A DNA stretch of 64,000 nucleotides from the NCBI GenBank assembly GCA_031553555.1, contig JAVBLL010000003.1, forward strand, positions 40,359-104,358. The letters run 5' to 3'. Below, in pieces: positions 2,497-21,647 of the stretch. Origin of the DNA: Bacilli bacterium (GTDB lineage Bacteria; Bacillota_I; Bacilli_A; ML615J-28; CAG-698). Under the pieces are notes generated by a model. It made no database searches. It had not been told where the DNA came from and saw only the letters and a list, made by a program, of their open reading frames with translations. The translations under genes were made by a program, and so were the position numbers. Positions within the stretch are counted from its first letter, which is position 1, and every line of letters begins with the position of its first letter.

Positions 2497-4008
2497 ATGG
2501 GAAACAAAGATATAATTATTGAATTAAAAAACGTCAACAAAGAATACGATGCAACAGTTGTTGTTGATGATGTCAACTTAGCCATTAAAAAAGGCGAGTT
2601 TGTAACTTTACTTGGGCCATCAGGCTGTGGAAAAACAACAACTCTTAGAATGATTGCTGGTTTTGAAATGGCGACTAGTGGAGAGATTTTACTGAATGGT
2701 AAAGATATATCATCTATCCCTCCTCATAAAAGACCAATTAACACTGTCTTTCAACGTTATGCACTTTTTCCTCATCTAGATGTTTATGACAATATTGCCT
2801 TTGGTTTAAAACTTAAAAAAGTGCCTGATGGAGAAAAGACTGATAAAAAAGGTAACCAAAAATATCGTCATCTCACAAAAGAGGAAATCGATAAAAAAGT
2901 TACAGGAGCTTTGAAAATTGTTGATCTTGAAGAATTTGAATGGCGTGACATTGCGACTTTATCAGGTGGACAGCAACAACGTGTGGCCATTGCTAGAGCT
3001 ATTGTAAATGAACCAGAAATCTTACTTCTAGATGAACCTCTTGGAGCCCTTGACTTAAAAATGCGCAAAGAGATGCAAGTTGAATTAAAAGAAATGCATA
3101 GCAAACTAGGGATTACTTTTATTTATGTAACGCATGACCAAGAAGAAGCACTAACAATGTCAGATACAATTGTCGTTATGAAAGATGGTATGATTCAACA
3201 AGTAGGAACTCCAAAAGCCATTTATGATGAACCAGCCAATGCGTTTGTTGCCAATTTTATTGGAGAAAGTAATATTTATAGTGGAACTATCATTGATGAT
3301 ACACATGTTTTGTTTTTGTCTCAACGTTTTGAATGTGTTGATAAATTTCCTAAAAATGAAAAAGTCGATGTTGTTTTAAGACCAGAAGATATTTTAATGG
3401 TTGATAAAGGTAAAGGAATGGTTGATGGAAAAATTGTTTCAAGAACTTTTAAAGGTGTTTATTATGAATATGTTTTAATGGTTGGTAAAAACGAAGTTGT
3501 CATTCAAAATACAAAATGTTTTGATGAAGGTTTAATTATGGGGATAACTGTTGAGGCAGATAATATCCATATTATGAGTAAAGAATTTACAAGTAATAAA
3601 TATGATGGTTATATTGATAAACACAATAATGTGATTTTTGCTGATGGCAAGTTTGTTTGTGATGTGACGCAGTTAATACCAGGAACAACATTAGATGAAG
3701 ATGGTTATTTAATAGCAAGTGACGGAACTATTTATGATTTAACTGATGCCGATGTCAAGGTTGAGGTTGGTTTAAATGAAATTGAAATTATCGATAATGA
3801 AGAAGATGGTATTGTCAGTGGAGAAATTATTTCAATTATTTATAAAGGTGACCACTATCAATTAATTATCCGTACTGAAGAAGATGAAGATTTTGTTGTT
3901 GATACTGAATGGTCCTATAATGAATTTGATAAGGTTTCAGTAATGATTAAACCAGAAGATATTCATATGAAATTGATTAATGAGGCAAAAAACTATGTCA
4001 AAGGTTAG
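2497..4008 (+). CDS. potA: spermidine/putrescine ABC transporter ATP-binding protein, extended form (503 aa)
   Basis: Walker [10 protein letters not shown], signature LSGGQQQR and Walker B LLLDEP are present. It is followed by potB/C/D-type genes. Confidence 0.9.
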
Positions 4009-4798
4009 ATTTAAGCGTAAGTATCTATCGATACCTTATCTAATTTTTCTAGTTTGTTTTGTTGTGATCCCATTGTTATTAATTATTTATTATGCATTGA
4101 GCAATGAAGATGGTTCAATATCTCTAAGTAACTTTATTAATTTCTTTGGCAATAAAGATAAGATTGGACTTTTATCAGTTAGTATAATAATCGGGGCCTT
4201 AAATACAGCCTTATGTGTTTTAATTGGTTATCCTATTGCTATGATTTTATCGAAAAATAAACGTGGTAACAATAAAATGTCAGTAATCATTTTATTATTC
4301 ATTATGCCAATGTGGATTAACTTTGTTTTAAGAACCGCAGCTACTCGTGATTTGTTATATTGGATTGGTATTGATGGTGGTAATTATCCATATTTAGCAA
4401 CAATGTTTGGGATGGTTTATAACTATTTACCATTCACGATTTTACCATTATATACAACAATGTTGAAAATGGACAAGAGTTTAATTGATGCATCATATGA
4501 TTTAGGGGCTAATAAAGTGCAAACTTTCGTAAAAACGACAATACCTATGACTATGCCTGGTATTATCAGTGCAGCACTAATGGTATTCATGCCAACAATG
4601 TCTAGCTTTGTTATTAGTGATGTTATGGGCGAAAGAAAAATTCAACTTATTGGTAATACAATTCAGTTTAACTTTGACCAAATGCGTTGGCATGAAGGAA
4701 GTCTGATTGCGTTCATTATGCTAATTATTATTGGTATTAGTATGCTACTTACAAAAAACATTCAAAAAGAAGAAAATGCTCGAGGTGGCTTATGGTAA
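3995..4798 (+). CDS. potB: spermidine/putrescine ABC transporter permease
   Basis: Six-TM BPD-type permease in operon order after potA. The ATG at 3995 has GAGG upstream; the start at 3980 is the alternative. Confidence 0.85.
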
Positions 4799-5589
4799 AG
4801 AAGATTTTTGGAAAATCATATGTAGTTTTAATTTTATTGTTAATGTATGCTCCAATTTTACTTCTTATTGCTTTTAGTTTCACAGATTCAAGCAATATTG
4901 GAACATGGAATGGTTTTACTTTTAAACTATATGGAGATGTATTTAAAAATGAAGAAATTATGGAAGCCTTAAAAAATACTATTTTAATTGCAGTAGCTTC
5001 CTCAGTATGTTCAACTATTCTTGGAACGCTTGGAGCAATTGGTATTTATTATAGTGGTAAAAGATTGAAGAAAGTTATGAATGGTTTAAATGAAATTCCG
5101 GTTTTAAACGCTGAAATTGTCACAGCCATTGCCTTAACAATTTTATTTGTTGCCTTAGGAATTCAGTTTAATTTTATAACTTTATTAATTGGTCATATGG
5201 TTCTAACAATCCCGTTTGTTATTTTGAGCGTAATGCCCAAACTTAAACAACTTGACCCTAATACATATGAGGCAGCTCTTGACCTAGGAGCGACACCACG
5301 TAAAGCATTATGGAGTGTCATTATTCCGGAAATAATGCCAGGAATTATCTCAGGCTTTTTGTTATGTGTTACCCTTTCTTTAGATGATTATATCATTACG
5401 GCCTTTACACGTAATAACTCCTTTTCAACATTATCCACTTATGTGTATGGTGTTACTGCCAAAAGAGGAGCACTTCCTGCGACTTTAAGAGCCTTGACAA
5501 CCATTATTACTGTATTAATGCTAGTAATCCTAATTTTCATTAACAAGCGCTCAGCCACAAAATATAAACATAGAGGAGCAAGATACTAA
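4792..5589 (+). CDS. potC: spermidine/putrescine ABC transporter permease
   Basis: BPD-type permease with EAALDLGATPRKALWSVIIP (EAA loop). It overlaps potB by 7 nt. Confidence 0.85.
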   Translation: MVKKIFGKSYVVLILLLMYAPILLLIAFSFTDSSNIGTWNGFTFKLYGDVFKNEEIMEALKNTILIAVASSVCSTILGTLGAIGIYYSGKRLKKVMNGLNEIPVLNAEIVTAIALTILFVALGIQFNFITLLIGHMVLTIPFVILSVMPKLKQLDPNTYEAALDLGATPRKALWSVIIPEIMPGIISGFLLCVTLSLDDYIITAFTRNNSFSTLSTYVYGVTAKRGALPATLRALTTIITVLMLVILIFINKRSATKYKHRGARY

Positions 5590-15308: not shown

Positions 15309-15382
15309 AGGGGTATAGTTCAACGGTAGAGCAGCGGTCTCCAAAACCGTAGATGTGGGTTCGAATCCTACTACCCCTGCCA
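15309..15382 (+). tRNA. trnW: tRNA-Trp (anticodon CCA)
   Basis: Acceptor AGGGGTA/TACCCCT, anticodon loop CTCCAAA, T-arm GGTTCGAATCC and an encoded CCA end. Confidence 0.95.
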
Positions 15383-15400
15383 TTATATAATTTTTTATAT

Positions 15401-15477
15401 GGCGATCGTGGCGAAGTGGTTAACGCTCTGGATTGTGGCTTCAGCATTCGTGGGTTCGATTCCCATCGGTCGCCCCA
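15401..15477 (+). tRNA. trnH: tRNA-His (anticodon GTG) with G-1
   Basis: Extra 5-prime G pairing with the discriminator C. Anticodon loop TTGTGGC, T-arm GGGTTCGATTCCC and an encoded CCA. Confidence 0.95.
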
Positions 15478-15488
15478 GTTGAGTAACT

Positions 15489-15537
15489 AACAAGATATTG
15501 TACAGTTTTTATTAGACTGTCCAACATCTTGTTTTTT
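15489..15537 (+). terminator. hairpin plus T-run after tRNA-His
   Basis: AACAAGAT ... ATCTTGTT with an inner GTACAG/CTGTCC pairing, followed by TTTTTT. It abuts the stop codon of the minus-strand transposase gene. Confidence 0.6.
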
Positions 15538-16774
15538 ATTTCTCATAAAACTCTTTTTCAAATTGATTGGGTGTTTTATTTTTTAATGTATTATGCGGTC
15601 TGTAATCATTGTAAAATTTAACATATTCTTCAAGCGATTGTTTTACTTCATAAAAATTAGTGAAGACCATTCTATTTAGTTCCTCTTTTCGATAAAAGGA
15701 AAAGAATGACTCTGCAACAGCATTATCATAAGGATTTCCAACATTTGAGAATGATTGAAGTACATCTAAAGATTTAAGCAAATTACAAAATTCATAAGCG
15801 GTATATTGAGTTCCACGATCACTATGAAACATCAAATCTTTTGGCTCATTTCTTTTTTCATAAGCCGCCTTAAATGTATTGATTACTAAATTAGAATTAT
15901 TTATATACGAGGCTTTTGCGCCAACTATTTTTCTGGAAAATAAATCGATAACAATACAAACATAATAGGAATTGCCATTTACTTTTATCGTGGCAATATC
16001 ACTTACCCATACTTTATTTGGAGCATCTTGAGTAAATTTTCGCAATAGCATGTTTTTATAAAATGGATTATAGTTTCCAGAAGGATATTTTTGTTTTTTT
16101 GTAATCAATAGCGGAGACAAATTAAGTTCTTTCATTAAATTATGTATTTTTTTCTCAGATGTTATATAGCCCAAATCTTTTAGTTTGGCTTCAATTTTTT
16201 TTGCACCAAAACGGGATTTGCTTTTTTCAAAAATCTCTTTTATTATTGGTTTTAGTTGTTCATCTTTAATTTCATAAGTAGTCTTGTCAACTCTTCTAAA
16301 ATGGTGATTATAAAACGTCCCTACTTTCACATTGAAAATTCTGCACATTTCTTTTACTGGATATAGACCAAATAGTTTTTCAATTGCTTCAAGTCGTATT
16401 TTCAGAGAAGATGTTTTGAAGCAGCCGGCTTTTTCATATATTTCTATTTGCCTGTTTTTTCTTTTCAATTCATTTTGAAGAGTTATAATATCGCTATAAG
16501 TGAATTTATTTTCATGTCTAGAAGAGTGTACTGTATATAATTTTTTCCAATAATAAAGAGTGCTTCTAGATATATTATATTCATTCATAATTTGACTAAT
16601 AGGAATATTATTATTTATTTTTTCAATTATTTCTTTCTTCACCTTATCCATAAATTTCTCCTAAATAAATAATAACATAAATTTATTTTAATAAAAAATT
16701 AATTATTATAGTAATTATCATATAATTGTTATAAAATATAACAAATAATTTAAAAAAAATTAAAAAAATGTATA
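15499..16774 (-). mobile_element. possible extent of the IS3-like element (ends uncertain)
   Basis: TGTACAGTTTTTATTAG at 15499 versus the reverse complement of AAAAAAATGTATA ending at 16774 gives only a weak inverted-repeat match. No matching target-site duplication was seen. Confidence 0.3.
15536..16651 (-). CDS. IS3-family (IS150-like) transposase, single uninterrupted ORF
   Basis: N-terminal HTH (ISRSTLYYWKK) and an rve/DDE core (WVSDIATI, HSDRGTQYTAYEF, NPYDNAVAESFF, YRPH). Confidence 0.85.
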   Translation of the reverse strand: MDKVKKEIIEKINNNIPISQIMNEYNISRSTLYYWKKLYTVHSSRHENKFTYSDIITLQNELKRKNRQIEIYEKAGCFKTSSLKIRLEAIEKLFGLYPVKEMCRIFNVKVGTFYNHHFRRVDKTTYEIKDEQLKPIIKEIFEKSKSRFGAKKIEAKLKDLGYITSEKKIHNLMKELNLSPLLITKKQKYPSGNYNPFYKNMLLRKFTQDAPNKVWVSDIATIKVNGNSYYVCIVIDLFSRKIVGAKASYINNSNLVINTFKAAYEKRNEPKDLMFHSDRGTQYTAYEFCNLLKSLDVLQSFSNVGNPYDNAVAESFFSFYRKEELNRMVFTNFYEVKQSLEEYVKFYNDYRPHNTLKNKTPNQFEKEFYEK

Positions 16775-16818
16775 CTTTTTTAGATTTTATGATATAATAT
16801 ATTGAAAGGAGAAATGAA

Positions 16819-18141
16819 ATGTTTACAAATATAAAAATTGAAAATTTTCAATCACTAGTTAATCTTGAAGTTGATTTACTGAAGACAAACAACAATCCAA
16901 AAAAAATGATAGTAATTTATGGCGAAAATGGAGTTGGAAAAACAAATTTTGCTACAACTTTTCATATGCTATTAGAAACAATTAGAACCATGTCTATAAG
17001 AGAGAGGTTAGTAGAGTTATTGGAAAAGGATAAGGATAAAAAAGAGTTTTCTTTTTTTGAATCTATCATTAAAGACTATTATAGTGATACAGAGAGTATA
17101 ATTAAAAAATATAAAACACAAGATTCAAATGAAAATATGTTTATTGAATATAAATTTAAAATTAAAAGTAAAAAAGGAACCTATCATTTAGAATATAATA
17201 ACTTTGAATTGGTTTCTGAAAGGCTGGATTATGTTTTGAATTCTAATCAAATTTGTTTTTTTAATATAACGAATAACAAGGATAAAACAAAAATAAACGA
17301 AAAAATTTTCACAAATAAGCAATATTATAAGCAATTTGATGAAGAATTAAATAAGTATTGGGGTAAACATAGTTTTCTATCAATTTTATATAATGAAATA
17401 GATGATAAAAAGAGAGGCTATGTTAAAAAAAATGTAGCAAAAGAATTATTTGATGTATTATTTTTCTTTTTGAGTGTTAATACAAAAATAAAAAATAAAA
17501 ATAAAGAATTTGGTGTCTTTGGAACAAGTAATAAAAATATTCATGATTTTTGTACGGGAAAAATATCAGTAAAAGAAGAAAATGTTTTAGACAAAACTGC
17601 TATAATGTTAAAACAGTTGTTTACTAATATGTATTCAGACATAAAAGATGTATATTATAAAAAAGAGTTTATTGATAATAAAATAAATTATCAATTATAT
17701 GTAAAAAAATTAGTTTATAATAATTTATTAGAGATAAATTTTGTAAAAGAATCTACAGGGACACAAAATTTATTGGATCTTATTCCTTATATTTTACAAG
17801 CATTGAAAGGTAATGTGGTTATTATTGATGAAATGGATTCAGGAATTCATGATATTTTAATCAACAATCTTCTGAAAAATATAAAAGAATATATAAAAGG
17901 TCAATTAATTATTACTACACATAATACTTTGTTACTGGAGTCTGCATTATCTAAAGAAAATATATATATATTTATAGTAAATCATAATGCTGAAAAAAAA
18001 TTAATTCCGCTAACAAGTTTTGATGAACGACAACATAAGAACTTTAATATGAGAAAAAGGTACCTTACAGGTTTATATGGTGGCATACCTTATACAACGG
18101 ATATAGATTTTGATGAAATAGCTAATTATTTAAAGGATTAG
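16819..18141 (+). CDS. ABC-type (AAA_15/AAA_21-like) ATPase of the OLD / AbiLi / AriA class
   Basis: Walker A GENGVGKTN, signature-like STGTQN, Walker B VVIIDEMDSGIHD and TTHN. GGAG RBS. Confidence 0.8.
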   Translation: MFTNIKIENFQSLVNLEVDLLKTNNNPKKMIVIYGENGVGKTNFATTFHMLLETIRTMSIRERLVELLEKDKDKKEFSFFESIIKDYYSDTESIIKKYKTQDSNENMFIEYKFKIKSKKGTYHLEYNNFELVSERLDYVLNSNQICFFNITNNKDKTKINEKIFTNKQYYKQFDEELNKYWGKHSFLSILYNEIDDKKRGYVKKNVAKELFDVLFFFLSVNTKIKNKNKEFGVFGTSNKNIHDFCTGKISVKEENVLDKTAIMLKQLFTNMYSDIKDVYYKKEFIDNKINYQLYVKKLVYNNLLEINFVKESTGTQNLLDLIPYILQALKGNVVIIDEMDSGIHDILINNLLKNIKEYIKGQLIITTHNTLLLESALSKENIYIFIVNHNAEKKLIPLTSFDERQHKNFNMRKRYLTGLYGGIPYTTDIDFDEIANYLKD

Positions 18142-18145
18142 TTAA

Positions 18146-18748
18146 ATGGGGAGAGAACTTAATTATTTAAAAGCTGTAGTAATAGTTCACGGAAAATCGG
18201 AAAAACAAATATGTAATTTTATTAAGTCTAATTTGAGAATTAATATTTTTATTGAAAGCGATAAAAATGGAGAAAAGGCAATTCAAATAACCAGTTTAAT
18301 GAAGAGAACCTTAAATAATAAGAAATTTAAAAGTTTTAAATCATTAAAAAGTTTTTTTGATGACCTTCAAATTGATAAAGAAACAAAGCAAATTGCTGAT
18401 GGTTTTAAAATTTTTATTATAATGGATACTGATGATTGTACAGAACGACAAAAACAAGATTTTCAAAATAAGGCTATGTTCAAAGATCATTGGGCATATG
18501 ATTATATTGTACCAATTTGGAATTGTCCGAATTTGGAGGAAGTTTTAAGGAAATCGGGCATAAAATTCAAGAAAAAAGGCAAAAAACAAAAGGATGAATA
18601 TATTGATATATTTCCTACAGATGAAAAATATAAAAAATCTGATGTATTGCAAATTAAAGAATTTTACAATATATTGGAAAATAATAATAATACTAATATG
18701 AATATTTTCGTTGATTTTTGTCTGGAAATTTTACAAAGAAAACAATAA
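18146..18748 (+). CDS. RloB/AbiLii-like (TOPRIM-type) small protein, partner of the ATPase
   Basis: VVIVHGKSEKQICNF resembles the RloB CEGekTE motif. IIMDTDD is a DxD-type motif. PIWNCPNLEEVL resembles the RloB SNPcFE motif. It lies 4 nt after the ATPase gene. Confidence 0.6.
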   Translation: MGRELNYLKAVVIVHGKSEKQICNFIKSNLRINIFIESDKNGEKAIQITSLMKRTLNNKKFKSFKSLKSFFDDLQIDKETKQIADGFKIFIIMDTDDCTERQKQDFQNKAMFKDHWAYDYIVPIWNCPNLEEVLRKSGIKFKKKGKKQKDEYIDIFPTDEKYKKSDVLQIKEFYNILENNNNTNMNIFVDFCLEILQRKQ

Positions 18749-18848
18749 TATGTGGTGTCAAAAGTGGTGTCAAAAATTTGAGAAAATACTAAATCGATTG
18801 TAGGCGAAATTTTATAGCTAAAATAGAGGATTTAAGCAAATGTAAATT

Positions 18849-18876
18849 TGGGTTACTAACCCCATCGGTCGCCCCA
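18849..18876 (+). repeat. direct repeat of the tRNA-His 3-prime end (att-like)
   Basis: TGGGTTACTAACCCCATCGGTCGCCCCA versus tRNA TGGGTTCGATTCCCATCGGTCGCCCCA (15451-15477). Confidence 0.85.
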
Positions 18877-18888
18877 TTTAAGACTCTT

Positions 18889-18916
18889 AAACTAGGTTGA
18901 AAAGCCTAGTTTTTTT
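18889..18916 (+). terminator. hairpin terminator belonging to the repeated tRNA-His flank
   Basis: AAACTAGG ... CCTAGTTTTTTT. The same structure recurs at about 21487-21514 and about 23749-23777. Confidence 0.7.
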
Positions 18917-19012
18917 GTTGTTTAGGGTGGGTTTGTCGAAATTTGTCGGTCGAAAAATGTAGAAATATATGTTTATATATGATATTCTATATTAAATTAG
19001 GAGTGCACAAAG

Positions 19013-19210
19013 ATGCAAAATAACGAAAAAGATACAGAAAAACATCCGCTATATGAAACGTTTTTTAATATTTTTTCTAAAGAGGATTTAAATCTACCAT
19101 TAGAAAGACAAATTAATAATTTTGAAGAGGAATTAGAAAAATTGTTTTTGAAATACTTAAATTGCGATTCTATAGAAAATGGCATGTTTCCAAAAAGTGG
19201 AAACATATGA
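19013..19210 (+). CDS. small acidic ORF overlapping the RES gene (antitoxin candidate or displaced N-terminus)
   Basis: Good RBS (AGGAG 8 nt upstream). It overlaps the next ORF by 32 nt across an A5 run. Confidence 0.4.
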   Translation: MQNNEKDTEKHPLYETFFNIFSKEDLNLPLERQINNFEEELEKLFLKYLNCDSIENGMFPKSGNI

Positions 19211-20105
19211 AAAAATAAATAGCATTTGTTGTGGATTAATAAAATGTGTACATGAATACTTACAAGGTTTTCCAGCTACTGCATTTAATAGTTTTAAAGG
19301 TATAATGGATGAATTAATTAAATATCCCTTTAAAGTTTATCAAAAATCTAAGGAATATAGTCCAAAAGAATTATATAATGACACATTAAGTTTATACAGA
19401 TGTAGAACAGTTGATGATAATTCAGAGTTGCTTAGAAAAGATTTATTTCATGTGCCATATGATTCGCGTACTAAAATTAATACATGCAGATATAGTATTG
19501 CAGGTTACCCATGTTTATATTTAAGTACAAATTTAAAATTATCATATGCAGAGATTGGCAAGGAAAGGAACGGGTATCAATTTTCTAAATTTCAATTACA
19601 AAGAGATGAGGGAATTCATGGTATTGAAATTAGATTATTAGAATTGGCAGTGAGACCAAAAGATTACTTTGAATATAACAATAATAATATAAAAAAGAAA
19701 AAATTTGATGAAATTGATTTGAGTAAATATGATACTATGCATTATTATCTTTTATGGTATCCCCTAATTGCTTCGTGCTCTTTCATTAGAAAAAAAAGAG
19801 AAGACCCATTTGCTGAAGAATATATAATCCCGCAACTTTTAATGCAATGGCTGAGAAGATATAGTAAAAGAGAAAATGTATTATATGGTATTAGATACTT
19901 TTCTTGTTTTTCTAGAGAGTTATCAGATAATGGATTTAATTATGTTTTTCCTGTGAGTGGAAATAAAAGTGAAAAAAACTCAAATTATTGTAAAATATTA
20001 ACGGAAATTTTTAAGTTAACAACACCATATTATATTGAAGATATTAAGGATATAAAAAAAGTCAAGAAACATTTTTGTAATAAAAATGATTATGATTTTT
20101 TATAA
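19179..20105 (+). CDS. RES-domain protein
   Basis: CRYSIAGYPCLYLSTNLKLSYAEIG supplies the R and E motifs, and YIIPQLLMQWLRR...GIRYFS supplies the S motif. There is no RBS before the ATG at 19179. Confidence 0.65.
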   Translation: MACFQKVETYEKINSICCGLIKCVHEYLQGFPATAFNSFKGIMDELIKYPFKVYQKSKEYSPKELYNDTLSLYRCRTVDDNSELLRKDLFHVPYDSRTKINTCRYSIAGYPCLYLSTNLKLSYAEIGKERNGYQFSKFQLQRDEGIHGIEIRLLELAVRPKDYFEYNNNNIKKKKFDEIDLSKYDTMHYYLLWYPLIASCSFIRKKREDPFAEEYIIPQLLMQWLRRYSKRENVLYGIRYFSCFSRELSDNGFNYVFPVSGNKSEKNSNYCKILTEIFKLTTPYYIEDIKDIKKVKKHFCNKNDYDFL

Positions 20106-20263
20106 TCAAAATAAAAATTAATAATTATTTTAACTAATTAATAAAATCGGTTTGCAACAAAAAAACAGAAAATATGAATCTATATTTAATATTAATATAA
20201 TATTATGAAACAATAGAAAAACTATGATAAAAATTCTTAAAAATGAATAGGAGAGGAACTATA

Positions 20264-21439
20264 ATGCCTGAATTAGATAATAATCATTATTTACCAAGAT
20301 TTGTTTTAGATAATTTTTCAATAAAGATAAGTGCTGATAATAATCGTATTTATGCATATGATTTAGAGCATAAGTTCTTATCTGAACGCAATACAAAAAA
20401 GACTGCTTTTATTAAAAACTTTTATGATGATGAAAGATTGGACGATATAAAGACAATAGAGAAAAAATTAAATTCATTAATAGAAACTCCTGTTGCTAAT
20501 ATTTTTAAAAAAATCATTTCAGAAGAAAAATCAATTTGTATTACCAGAAAAGAACTTGAACTAATTAAAAAATATATGCTAACACAAATATATCGTAATC
20601 TTCGAAATAGTAAGGGGTATGAACTTACATCTACAACAGATGAGATTAAAATGTCTAAGTATAATAAACTCGAAAATGAATCCGAGTTAGATTTTTGGAA
20701 AACAGAACTATTAACAATTATAGAAACAGATTTTGATGAGTTAATAAAAAATAACTTAGTTGGCGTTAGACAATACGCTAATGAAATATATACAGGTTTC
20801 TTAATGTTCTTTAGAACCAACGATGAATTTATTATAAATGATAGTGGATTAGTTGCAGAAAGAGTTCCATATAAGATGAGCAAAGAATTTTATGAAAAAG
20901 CAATGGAGAATGCTGATTTAATGATTGGAATTACAGGTAGGACTGATTATAAAGAAACATTAACAAAGGAATATGAAAATGGAAGTAGTTATCTTGACAA
21001 TATGTTGATTTTCCCAATTGCCTCAAATTACTTTATTGCTTGTGTACATCCTCAATGGAAGAATCTTGTAATGTATCCTGAAATATTCAGGAATGATTCA
21101 AATATTCATTATGAATCAAACATCTTAATTAATCATTTAAATATACCAAAATGTGATTATGTTAATATAAAGTTAATGACTAATCAAGCATCAATTAATA
21201 AGTATAAGCATCCAGATGATAAATATACTTATAAAATAAACGTTCTAAATAATCAAGAGACTATATATATAAATTTATTAACTATGAATGAAGCATATAA
21301 GTATATAATTTTTAAAAATTTAGAGAATGTGATAAATAGTATTTCAGTATATATTGCAAATCAAGATAGAATTTCAAATATCAAGAATGATTATAAGCCA
21401 TTATTAGAGCAAATTAAGAAAAAGATGAATATTGGTTGA
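20264..21439 (+). CDS. DUF4238-family protein
   Basis: N-terminal NNHYLPRFVLDNF matches the H-y-x-P-x-F-y-L-x-x-F opening of DUF4238. AGGAGAGG RBS precedes the ATG at 20264. Confidence 0.7.
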   Translation: MPELDNNHYLPRFVLDNFSIKISADNNRIYAYDLEHKFLSERNTKKTAFIKNFYDDERLDDIKTIEKKLNSLIETPVANIFKKIISEEKSICITRKELELIKKYMLTQIYRNLRNSKGYELTSTTDEIKMSKYNKLENESELDFWKTELLTIIETDFDELIKNNLVGVRQYANEIYTGFLMFFRTNDEFIINDSGLVAERVPYKMSKEFYEKAMENADLMIGITGRTDYKETLTKEYENGSSYLDNMLIFPIASNYFIACVHPQWKNLVMYPEIFRNDSNIHYESNILINHLNIPKCDYVNIKLMTNQASINKYKHPDDKYTYKINVLNNQETIYINLLTMNEAYKYIIFKNLENVINSISVYIANQDRISNIKNDYKPLLEQIKKKMNIG

Positions 21440-21461
21440 TACGAGTGACGACAAGTACCAA

Positions 21462-21474
21462 ATCGGTCGCCCCA
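21462..21474 (+). repeat. direct repeat of the tRNA-His 3-prime end (att-like), followed by the conserved flank
   Basis: ATCGGTCGCCCCA is followed by TTTAAGACTCTTAGACTAGGTTGAGAAAACCTAGTTTTTT, as at 18877-18916. Confidence 0.75.
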
Positions 21475-21647
21475 TTTAAGACTCTTAGACTAGGTTGAGA
21501 AAACCTAGTTTTTTGTTGTTATAATGTTGTAGTAAAATATCGAAAATTTAAATAATTTTAACCCAAAATAATTAGAACAAAGGAAAAGCAATATAATTAT
21601 GCTAATTATCTTTTTGTTTATTAAGAAAAGATATAAAAAATATTATA

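Follow-up and report, generated by a model that had tools for sequence, protein, structure and literature searches.

A two-gene cassette of an AbiLi-like ATPase and a putative RloB-like mini-TOPRIM partner with histidine at the canonical glutamate position

The cassette described here lies in a 64,000-nucleotide stretch of a Bacilli bacterium genome (GenBank assembly GCA_031553555.1, contig JAVBLL010000003.1, positions 40,359 to 104,358), hereafter the window, in whose numbering all positions are given. Two genes, both on the plus strand. The first encodes an ATP-binding cassette (ABC) ATPase of 440 amino acids, the second a protein of 200 amino acids. The pair is probably an AbiL-type module, composed of an ABC ATPase and a small RloB-like TOPRIM effector, and belonging to the OLD/PARIS/Gabija superclass. 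By analogy with that superclass the cassette appears to be a divergent AbiL-type defence or toxin module, missed by current detection, of known architecture and with an unannotated partner family; a role in defence is likewise suggested by analogy. The features of the cassette are as follows.

16790–16798, plus strand: predicted promoter, extended -10 element TG-a-TATAAT (sequence reading).
16804–16812, plus strand: predicted ribosome-binding site of the ATPase gene, GAAAGGAGA, 7 nt ahead of the ATG (sequence reading).
16819–18141, plus strand: AbiLi-like ABC/AAA_21 ATPase gene, 440 aa (open reading frame list, profile matches).
18133–18138, plus strand: ribosome-binding site of the small gene, AAAGGA, inside the 3' end of the ATPase gene (sequence).
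18146–18748, plus strand: candidate RloB/AbiLii-like mini-TOPRIM gene, 200 aa, of an unannotated family (open reading frame list, family alignment, AlphaFold2 (AF2) model).
18889–18920, plus strand: intrinsic operon terminator with a 10-bp stem, a 4-nt loop and a T-run (hairpin 18889–18912).

The gene sizes, coordinates and 4-nt spacing given by the initial annotation of this DNA are correct: the ATPase gene ends in TAG at 18139–18141 and is followed by TTAA and the ATG of the small gene. Translational coupling is suggested, since the small-gene ribosome-binding site lies within the end of the ATPase gene. A second, weak promoter candidate occurs upstream at 16749–16776 (consensus scan). Together the two genes make up one operon, which has a promoter and a terminator of its own and a coupled ribosome-binding site. 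The window sequence is present in an invertebrate-gut metagenome and metatranscriptome, both from the same study. Metatranscriptome contigs match 16821–17344 and 17844–18874, each at 100% identity; the latter crosses the gene junction and ends 15 nt before the terminator stem. Metatranscriptome coverage is zero at 16500–16673 and 18936–19100, just outside the predicted promoter and terminator, and fits a bicistronic transcript bounded by the two. Contig depth is about 20–24 over the cassette, with little or none over the flanking IS3, RES-like and DUF4238 genes, and suggests constitutive expression in situ.

The ATPase possesses a Walker A motif GENGVGKT (residues 35–42), a signature-like STGTQ at 312, a Walker B motif VVIIDEMD at 333 (Walker B/D-loop 333–345) and an H-loop TTHN (366–369). 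An insertion of about 270 aa separates Walker A from the signature motif. The best PADLOC match is AbiLi (PDLC02335; 2.9e-44, 149.5 bits), about 90 bits above the next; lower matches are AriA (6.6e-17, 60 bits), PDC-M07A (50 bits) and mad3 (4.4e-13, 47 bits). AAA_21 of Pfam is matched at 1.2e-16 and phrog_5836 of PHROGs at 2.4e-43. No relative is found among PDB sequences at E<=0.01. Judged by its profile matches, the ATPase is AbiLi-like, and the ATPase of a genuine RloB pair from an E. coli plasmid matches the same PADLOC AbiLi model at 276 bits. The alignment to phrog_5836 covers positions 5–412 of a 1071-position profile, which hints that some phage relatives of the ATPase are much longer and possibly effector-fused.

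The small protein contains VVIVHGKSEKQ at residue 11, IIMDTDDC at 91 and PIWNCPNLEE at 123; all motifs quoted earlier for it and for the ATPase are present at their mapped residues. A collection clustered at 90% holds 552 relatives of it, all of them lacking a Pfam domain. At 50% identity the family comprises 376 clusters with E<=1e-3 and 282 with E<=1e-10, and its members are mostly about 180–220 aa long among the 150 matches listed. The family is large, stand-alone and unannotated. An alignment of 103 diverse members (A2), down to 27% identity to the query, retains H15 in 98 members (never Glu), G16 in 102, S/T18 in 94, E19 in 100, D94 in 101, D96 in 96, D/E97 in 90, P123 in 100, I124 in 100, N126 in 82, E/D131 in 101, Y152 in 98, T/S183 in 102 and N184 in all 103. 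H15, G16, E19, D94, D96, P123, I124, Y152 and N184 are thus conserved at 90–100%, and the motifs are not due to chance.

The two genes are strictly linked. Among 80 loci from species-representative genomes, a homologue of the window ATPase stands immediately upstream of the small gene on the same strand in 78, with a gap of 11–83 nt, the other two loci being cut by contig ends. Clustering of all open reading frames in the 80 loci yields no third conserved gene. The identities of ATPase and partner to the window's proteins are correlated (r=0.94, 68 loci); the two diverge in step. The same ATPase-first pairing occurs in four metagenome contexts, on an E. faecalis conjugative plasmid, in Oenococcus phage phi9805 (gp41/gp40) and on five IMG/VR contigs; HGK[SC]E and DxD are kept in the plasmid, phi9805 and all five IMG/VR copies. 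Carriers are mostly uncultured gut Bacilli and Clostridia (Lachnospiraceae, Oscillospiraceae), further Fusobacterium, Brachyspira, one Melainabacteria genome and 'Tenericutes' metagenome-assembled genomes. Flanks are variable: a DNA methylase with a MutH-like nuclease, ToxN, integrases, or housekeeping genes. The cassette is a self-contained, horizontally mobile two-gene module.

This distribution effectively refutes a housekeeping role in DNA repair like that of RecF, an ABC ATPase, and RecR, a TOPRIM protein of about 200 aa; that reading was rejected as extremely improbable. Size and architecture are analogous, and the N-terminus of the ATPase has weak RecF/SMC_N similarity; its score against the NCBIfam recF model, however, is 20.8 bits with a cutoff of 172, the small protein has neither the RecR zinc finger nor a helix-hairpin-helix motif, and patchy occurrence, island-like variable flanks, plasmid and phage copies and an islet bounded by tRNA repeats do not suit such a role.

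In the phi9805 copy (3642–5492 in the numbering of the phage locus; gp41 is the ATPase) the partner gp40 has only 149 aa, matches query residues 6–135 and retains the TOPRIM-like core without the C-terminal helical bundle.

Distant relatives of the ATPase occur on small enterobacterial plasmids, paired with annotated RloB of 205–206 aa. The small protein is shorter than AriB, as the initial annotation stated, but its length is not a distinctive trait: 200 aa is normal for RloB-type partners and short only in comparison with AriB. The plasmids concerned are small mobilizable plasmids of E. coli and Klebsiella, 3.9–5.3 kb, some of them ColE1-like, which carry replication and mobilisation genes, the AbiLi-like ATPase and RloB pair, and little else. 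The C-terminus of the ATPase matched 23 Klebsiella and 15 Escherichia plasmid records.

Fold and motif geometry, corroborated by family-level sequence matches, favour reading the small-protein family as a divergent AbiLii/RloB-like mini-TOPRIM. The AF2 model of the small protein (built with A2; pLDDT 94.6, pTM 0.90) has the order b1-a1-b2-a-a-b3-a-b4-a followed by C-terminal helices. The AF2 model of a genuine RloB (P0391; pLDDT 92.2) is colinear with it and has its invariant residues at matching places. The elements compare as follows.

Strand b1: residues 10–14; in RloB 14–18.
Straight after b1: H15-G16; in RloB E19-G20.
Helix a1 (N-terminal residues in brackets): 17–30 (S18-E19); in RloB 23–35 (T23-E24).
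Strand b2: 34–37, with helices 48–56 and 64–70 ahead of b3.
Strand b3: 88–94; in RloB 74–80.
Acidic motif behind b3: D94-x-D96; in RloB D80-x-E82.
Helix between b3 and b4: 100–107.
Strand b4: 121–126; in RloB 105–109.
Helix after b4: 130–136 (E131); in RloB 113–118 (C112, E114).
C-terminal end: helical bundle ending T183-N184...F..C; in RloB a bundle ending YT..H.LLDAI.

In the model the invariant H, E, D, D, N and E sit at the C-terminal ends of strands. Taken as an order along the chain, the predicted secondary structure fits b1-a1-b2-a2-b3-a3-b4, the order of the four-strand parallel TOPRIM core. The parallels to RloB motifs drawn earlier from the letters are borne out by the model, which places H15-G16, S18-E19, D94-x-D96 and N126...E131 where RloB has its own motifs. 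Foldseek against the PDB ranks the Thermus scotoductus OLD nuclease first (6p74; E 0.011, probability 0.80) and the Xanthomonas OLD C-terminal region third and fourth (6njv, 6njw), followed by many TOPRIM domains of topoisomerases II and VI. Against BFVD only the phi9805 homologue is returned. The genuine RloB model, used as a yardstick, has lumazine and riboflavin synthases at the top and OLD (6njx) only at rank 34. Weak Foldseek scores are hence normal for so small a domain and not evidence against TOPRIM; as the genuine RloB does no better, the Foldseek test cannot discriminate.

Sequence comparison was made at the level of the family. A PADLOC scan of the 103 members returns AbiLii (PDLC02337) in 15 (counted at E<=0.1; best 5.8e-5), mad4 in 5 and HEC-01B in 2, and each remaining family in only one or two. 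The 103 reversed-sequence decoys, a composition control, return none of these three and only single scattered matches, down to 7.9e-5; a lone match at about 1e-4 is therefore uninformative. The recurrence of AbiLii, 15 members against no decoy, is specific at the level of profile matching. Member P0146 aligns over its whole length to AbiLii profile positions 23–92; the genuine E. coli plasmid RloB (Pfam RloB 1e-33) aligns to positions 22–87 at 3.1e-21. Residues 10–131 of the E. faecalis plasmid member weakly match mad4 and the TOPRIM part of a GajA model. Read as sequence relationships, the AbiLii matches in some members are a sign of distant relatedness and not of membership as the model defines it. 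The absence of profile matches, named by the initial annotation as a point that would speak against it, holds for the window's protein but not for the family (AbiLii 15/103, mad4 5/103, decoys 0/103); the absence of co-occurrence, named with it, does not hold, the pairing being strict. Its proposal of an ATPase plus TOPRIM-like pair of the AbiL/PARIS/OLD architecture is supported by the AbiLi-like profile match, the co-occurrence and the AF2 topology.

The following results weigh against an AbiL-type module with a TOPRIM nuclease. The window's small protein has no TOPRIM, RloB, DUF4276 or DUF4435 match at E<=1, nor one of any other kind, in Pfam, NCBIfam, PHROGs or PADLOC. Sequence searches of the PDB with the single protein or alignments A1 and A2 give nothing, or insignificant tryptophanase and small-TOPRIM matches (E 0.09–1.5). 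A Pfam scan of the 103 members gives scattered single matches, no TOPRIM and no RloB (0/103). HHalign of A2 with a 55-sequence RloB alignment, which is narrow and proteobacterial (effective number 0.96), reaches a probability of 10.7%, and the C-terminal motif is the sole segment aligned, in the C-terminal helices; global mode and the addition of AF2-derived secondary structure (<2%) are not significant. Only a greedy (MAC) realignment, not significant, puts HG-KSE on CEGEKTE and IIMDxDD on VVYDRE. Searches of the RloB hidden Markov model (HMM) against family members, and the reverse, are not significant (hmmsearch). By these comparisons, no homology of the family to Pfam RloB can be established statistically (HHalign probability <=11%). 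Foldseek against the PDB gives no match at E<=0.001, TM-scores are about 0.33, and flavodoxin-like folds (e.g. lumazine synthase) are also among the matches. As the canonical catalytic glutamate is missing, nuclease activity is not to be taken for granted. For no family member were data on phage resistance, toxicity or nuclease activity identified. The RNA evidence consists of assembled metatranscriptome contigs, and DNA carry-over is not fully excludable.

The negative HHalign result and the Foldseek E-values, all 0.01 or weaker, would also suit a small protein that is not TOPRIM at all but a generic three-layer alpha/beta (flavodoxin- or HAD-like) enzyme, e.g. a phosphatase or nucleotide hydrolase, partnered by chance with an AbiLi-like ATPase. 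The string 'hhhDxDD' resembles HAD motif I. This alternative is nevertheless very unlikely: DxD stands behind strand 3 and not strand 1, where HG-x-S-E is found instead, like EG-xx-T-E of RloB; AbiLii and mad4 recur among the members but in no decoy; and the top PDB matches are richer in OLD and topoisomerase TOPRIM domains than those of the genuine RloB model.

The residue directly after strand 1 and before Gly is the canonical TOPRIM Glu position (E19 in RloB), where canonical TOPRIM has its general base and metal ligand. It is His in 98/103 members of the family and Glu in 0/103, and the substitution reported by the initial annotation for one protein is thus a trait of the family. The DxD acidic motif at the end of strand 88–94 is retained. 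In AriB the E26A mutant no longer cleaves (bioRxiv 10.1101/2025.02.04.636281); we take E26 to be the same TOPRIM Glu. The retained acidic cluster E19, D94, D96, D97 and E/D131 points to a metal site that is altered yet still functional, and against a dead domain. Judged from residue conservation, the active site is probably still metal-dependent, and the His may shift metal preference or serve as a general base.

Alternatively, the small protein might keep a TOPRIM-like fold without being a nuclease: the domain would have lost its activity or taken on another task, for instance that of an adaptor which binds metal or a nucleotide and regulates the ATPase, and the true effector would be the ATPase or a host factor. 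In favour of this, a residue essential in AriB is never present in this family. The alternative is quite unlikely. Inactivated domains usually lose conservation, whereas H15, E19, D94, D96, D97, N126, E/D131 and N184 are nearly invariant among members of about 30% identity, which points to a functional active site. The neighbourhood holds no further conserved effector gene, and no additional domain occurs in the ATPase.

The AbiL-type module with a nuclease effector remains the preferred reading. A further claim is tentative: the His-for-Glu family could constitute a catalytically distinct branch of TOPRIM nucleases which, with the AbiLi-like ATPase, makes up an anti-phage system widespread among gut anaerobes, prophages and plasmids and missed by Pfam, NCBIfam and, for most members, PADLOC. 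In such a branch His might act together with a transition metal, as general base or as ligand, or the branch might differ from AriB or OLD in end chemistry or substrate.

ABC ATPase plus TOPRIM systems include AbiL and MADS3-4 (PMC11464382), and RloB, which is AbiLii, is related to OLD_TOPRIM (PMC10440598). In PARIS, AriA holds AriB and frees it upon sensing a phage protein (PMC11464382). By analogy with PARIS and with pairs of AAA antitoxin and TOPRIM_OLD toxin, an oligomer of the ATPase would sequester the small protein, keep it inactive and sense infection. A trigger would then lead to ATP-dependent release or activation of the effector, probably a dimer. The freed effector would cleave nucleic acid, and cleavage would arrest growth of the infected cell. 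tRNA or another RNA is the leading guess for the substrate because AriB is, according to the same preprint (bioRxiv 10.1101/2025.02.04.636281), a two-metal tRNase that leaves 3'-OH and 5'-P ends; DNA is possible, as for GajA and OLD.

The ATPase might instead constitutively neutralise a small toxin without sensing phage, the pair being mainly a toxin-antitoxin-like addiction or stabilisation module of mobile islets. Carriage by islets, plasmids and prophages is in agreement with this, and AAA ATPases neutralise TOPRIM_OLD toxins (PMC10440598). In NetFlax the pairs AAA(D29):TOPRIM_OLD (C. algidicarnis D44; S. agalactiae 2603V/R D60), small Bacillota TOPRIM_OLD-like toxins neutralised by an adjacent AAA ATPase, were validated in E. 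coli, with the ATPase treated as the antitoxin; defence was not demonstrated there (PMC10440598). The NetFlax toxins WP_000010056.1 and WP_104409920.1 are likened to the window family by their description. Addiction as the main role is unlikely, since AbiL, PARIS, OLD and Gabija, the related ATPase plus TOPRIM systems whose phenotype is known, act in phage defence (PMC11464382) and the cassette often adjoins other defence genes. Addiction and phage defence are not mutually exclusive.

Of known systems, AbiL of Lactococcus lactis and the ATPase plus RloB (PF13707) pairs share the two-gene operon with the ATPase first and a partner of about 200 aa second. The window ATPase matches the AbiLi model, at 149 bits compared with 276 for the genuine RloB-partner ATPase, and the partner's secondary-structure order and motif places are those of RloB. 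The partner differs in having no match to the Pfam RloB or AbiLii model, in its motifs (H-G-x-S-E, D-x-D-D and N-x-x-x-L-E in the window family; C-E-G-x-x-T-E, D-x-E and N-x-C-F-E in RloB) and in about 15 additional residues between strands 2 and 3. As read from profiles and motifs, the cassette is AbiL-like in operon layout and ATPase, outside the AbiL model definition by its partner, and without the TOPRIM Glu. PARIS is alike in the split ABC ATPase and TOPRIM effector and in its frequent location on mobile elements (PMC11464382); AriB, however, has about 35 kDa, about 300 aa (PMC11464382), a DUF4435 domain (PF14491) and the catalytic Glu E26, while the window partner has 200 aa and no DUF4435 match, and the window ATPase scores far lower against AriA models than against AbiLi. 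PARIS was rejected because the small protein has no DUF4435 match. OLD nucleases (P2 Old, Thermus and Xanthomonas OLD, GajA) are alike in combining ABC ATPase and TOPRIM, and OLD structures (6p74, 6njv/6njw) are the best fold matches; in OLD and GajA both domains are in one polypeptide and the canonical Glu is present, whereas the window system is split and has His in place of Glu. MAD3/MAD4 of MADS are approached by the mad3 match of the window ATPase (4.4e-13), a weak match to NCBIfam MADS3 and mad4 matches in five members. MADS was rejected: the NCBIfam MAD3 model (NF047739) is matched sub-threshold, at 38 bits with a cutoff of 420, neither a methyltransferase nor any other mad gene lies close by, and across the 80 loci no third gene is conserved.

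ATPase plus TOPRIM systems (OLD, Gabija, PARIS, AbiL, MADS3-4) rank among the main classes of bacterial immunity, and the chemistry of their effectors is only now being worked out. The architecture of the present cassette is known. Unusual are the size of a partner family invisible to annotation and an active-site substitution that is directly testable: the invariant His at the Glu position essential in AriB is a clean mutational handle on the catalytic flexibility of TOPRIM. Because the partner family, with its 376 clusters, escapes the curated profiles searched, genomes that carry it would be scored as lacking an AbiL-type system; a dedicated HMM made from the small-protein family would improve the annotation of defence systems.

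The cassette is situated in the first islet after tRNA-His, beside a transposase, as had been noted. Two tandem islets at this tRNA gene are delimited by repeats.

15309–15382: tRNA-Trp (tRNA search).
15402–15477, plus strand: tRNA-His (GTG), the insertion target (ARAGORN).
About 15484–18860: islet A, about 3.4 kb, with the IS3-type transposase and the cassette.
15536–16651, minus strand: IS3-type transposase (helix-turn-helix and rve), a single open reading frame of 371 aa (Pfam rve 1.1e-21, rve_3, HTH_21).
18859–18922, plus strand: right boundary of the islet, a partial tRNA-His 3' end joined to the terminator.
About 18883–21458: islet B, about 2.6 kb, with RES-like and DUF4238 genes.
19179–20105: RES-like protein, 308 aa (phrog_7835 7e-44; Pfam RES faint, E 0.21).
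20243–21439: DUF4238 protein (8e-29).

The left repeat, 15462–15483, consists of the last 16 nt of tRNA-His and 6 further nt, and recurs at 18861–18882 (91%) and 21459–21480 (82%) (repeat search). The 64-nt unit of tRNA remnant and terminator-like hairpin at 18859–18922 is repeated at 21457–21520 (84%), where it closes the second islet. No integrase gene is present in islet A or islet B. The IS3-type transposase shares its islet with the cassette and is not part of the two-gene system. The RES-like and DUF4238 genes of islet B are candidate defence or toxin genes.

The stop codon that ends the small gene is followed directly by a tandem 12-nt repeat at 18752–18775, GTGGTGTCAAAA in two copies. 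Overlapping this repeat on the minus strand is the region's best promoter-like site, TTGACA-17-TATTAT (11/12, 18773–18745), which would transcribe antisense into the small gene.

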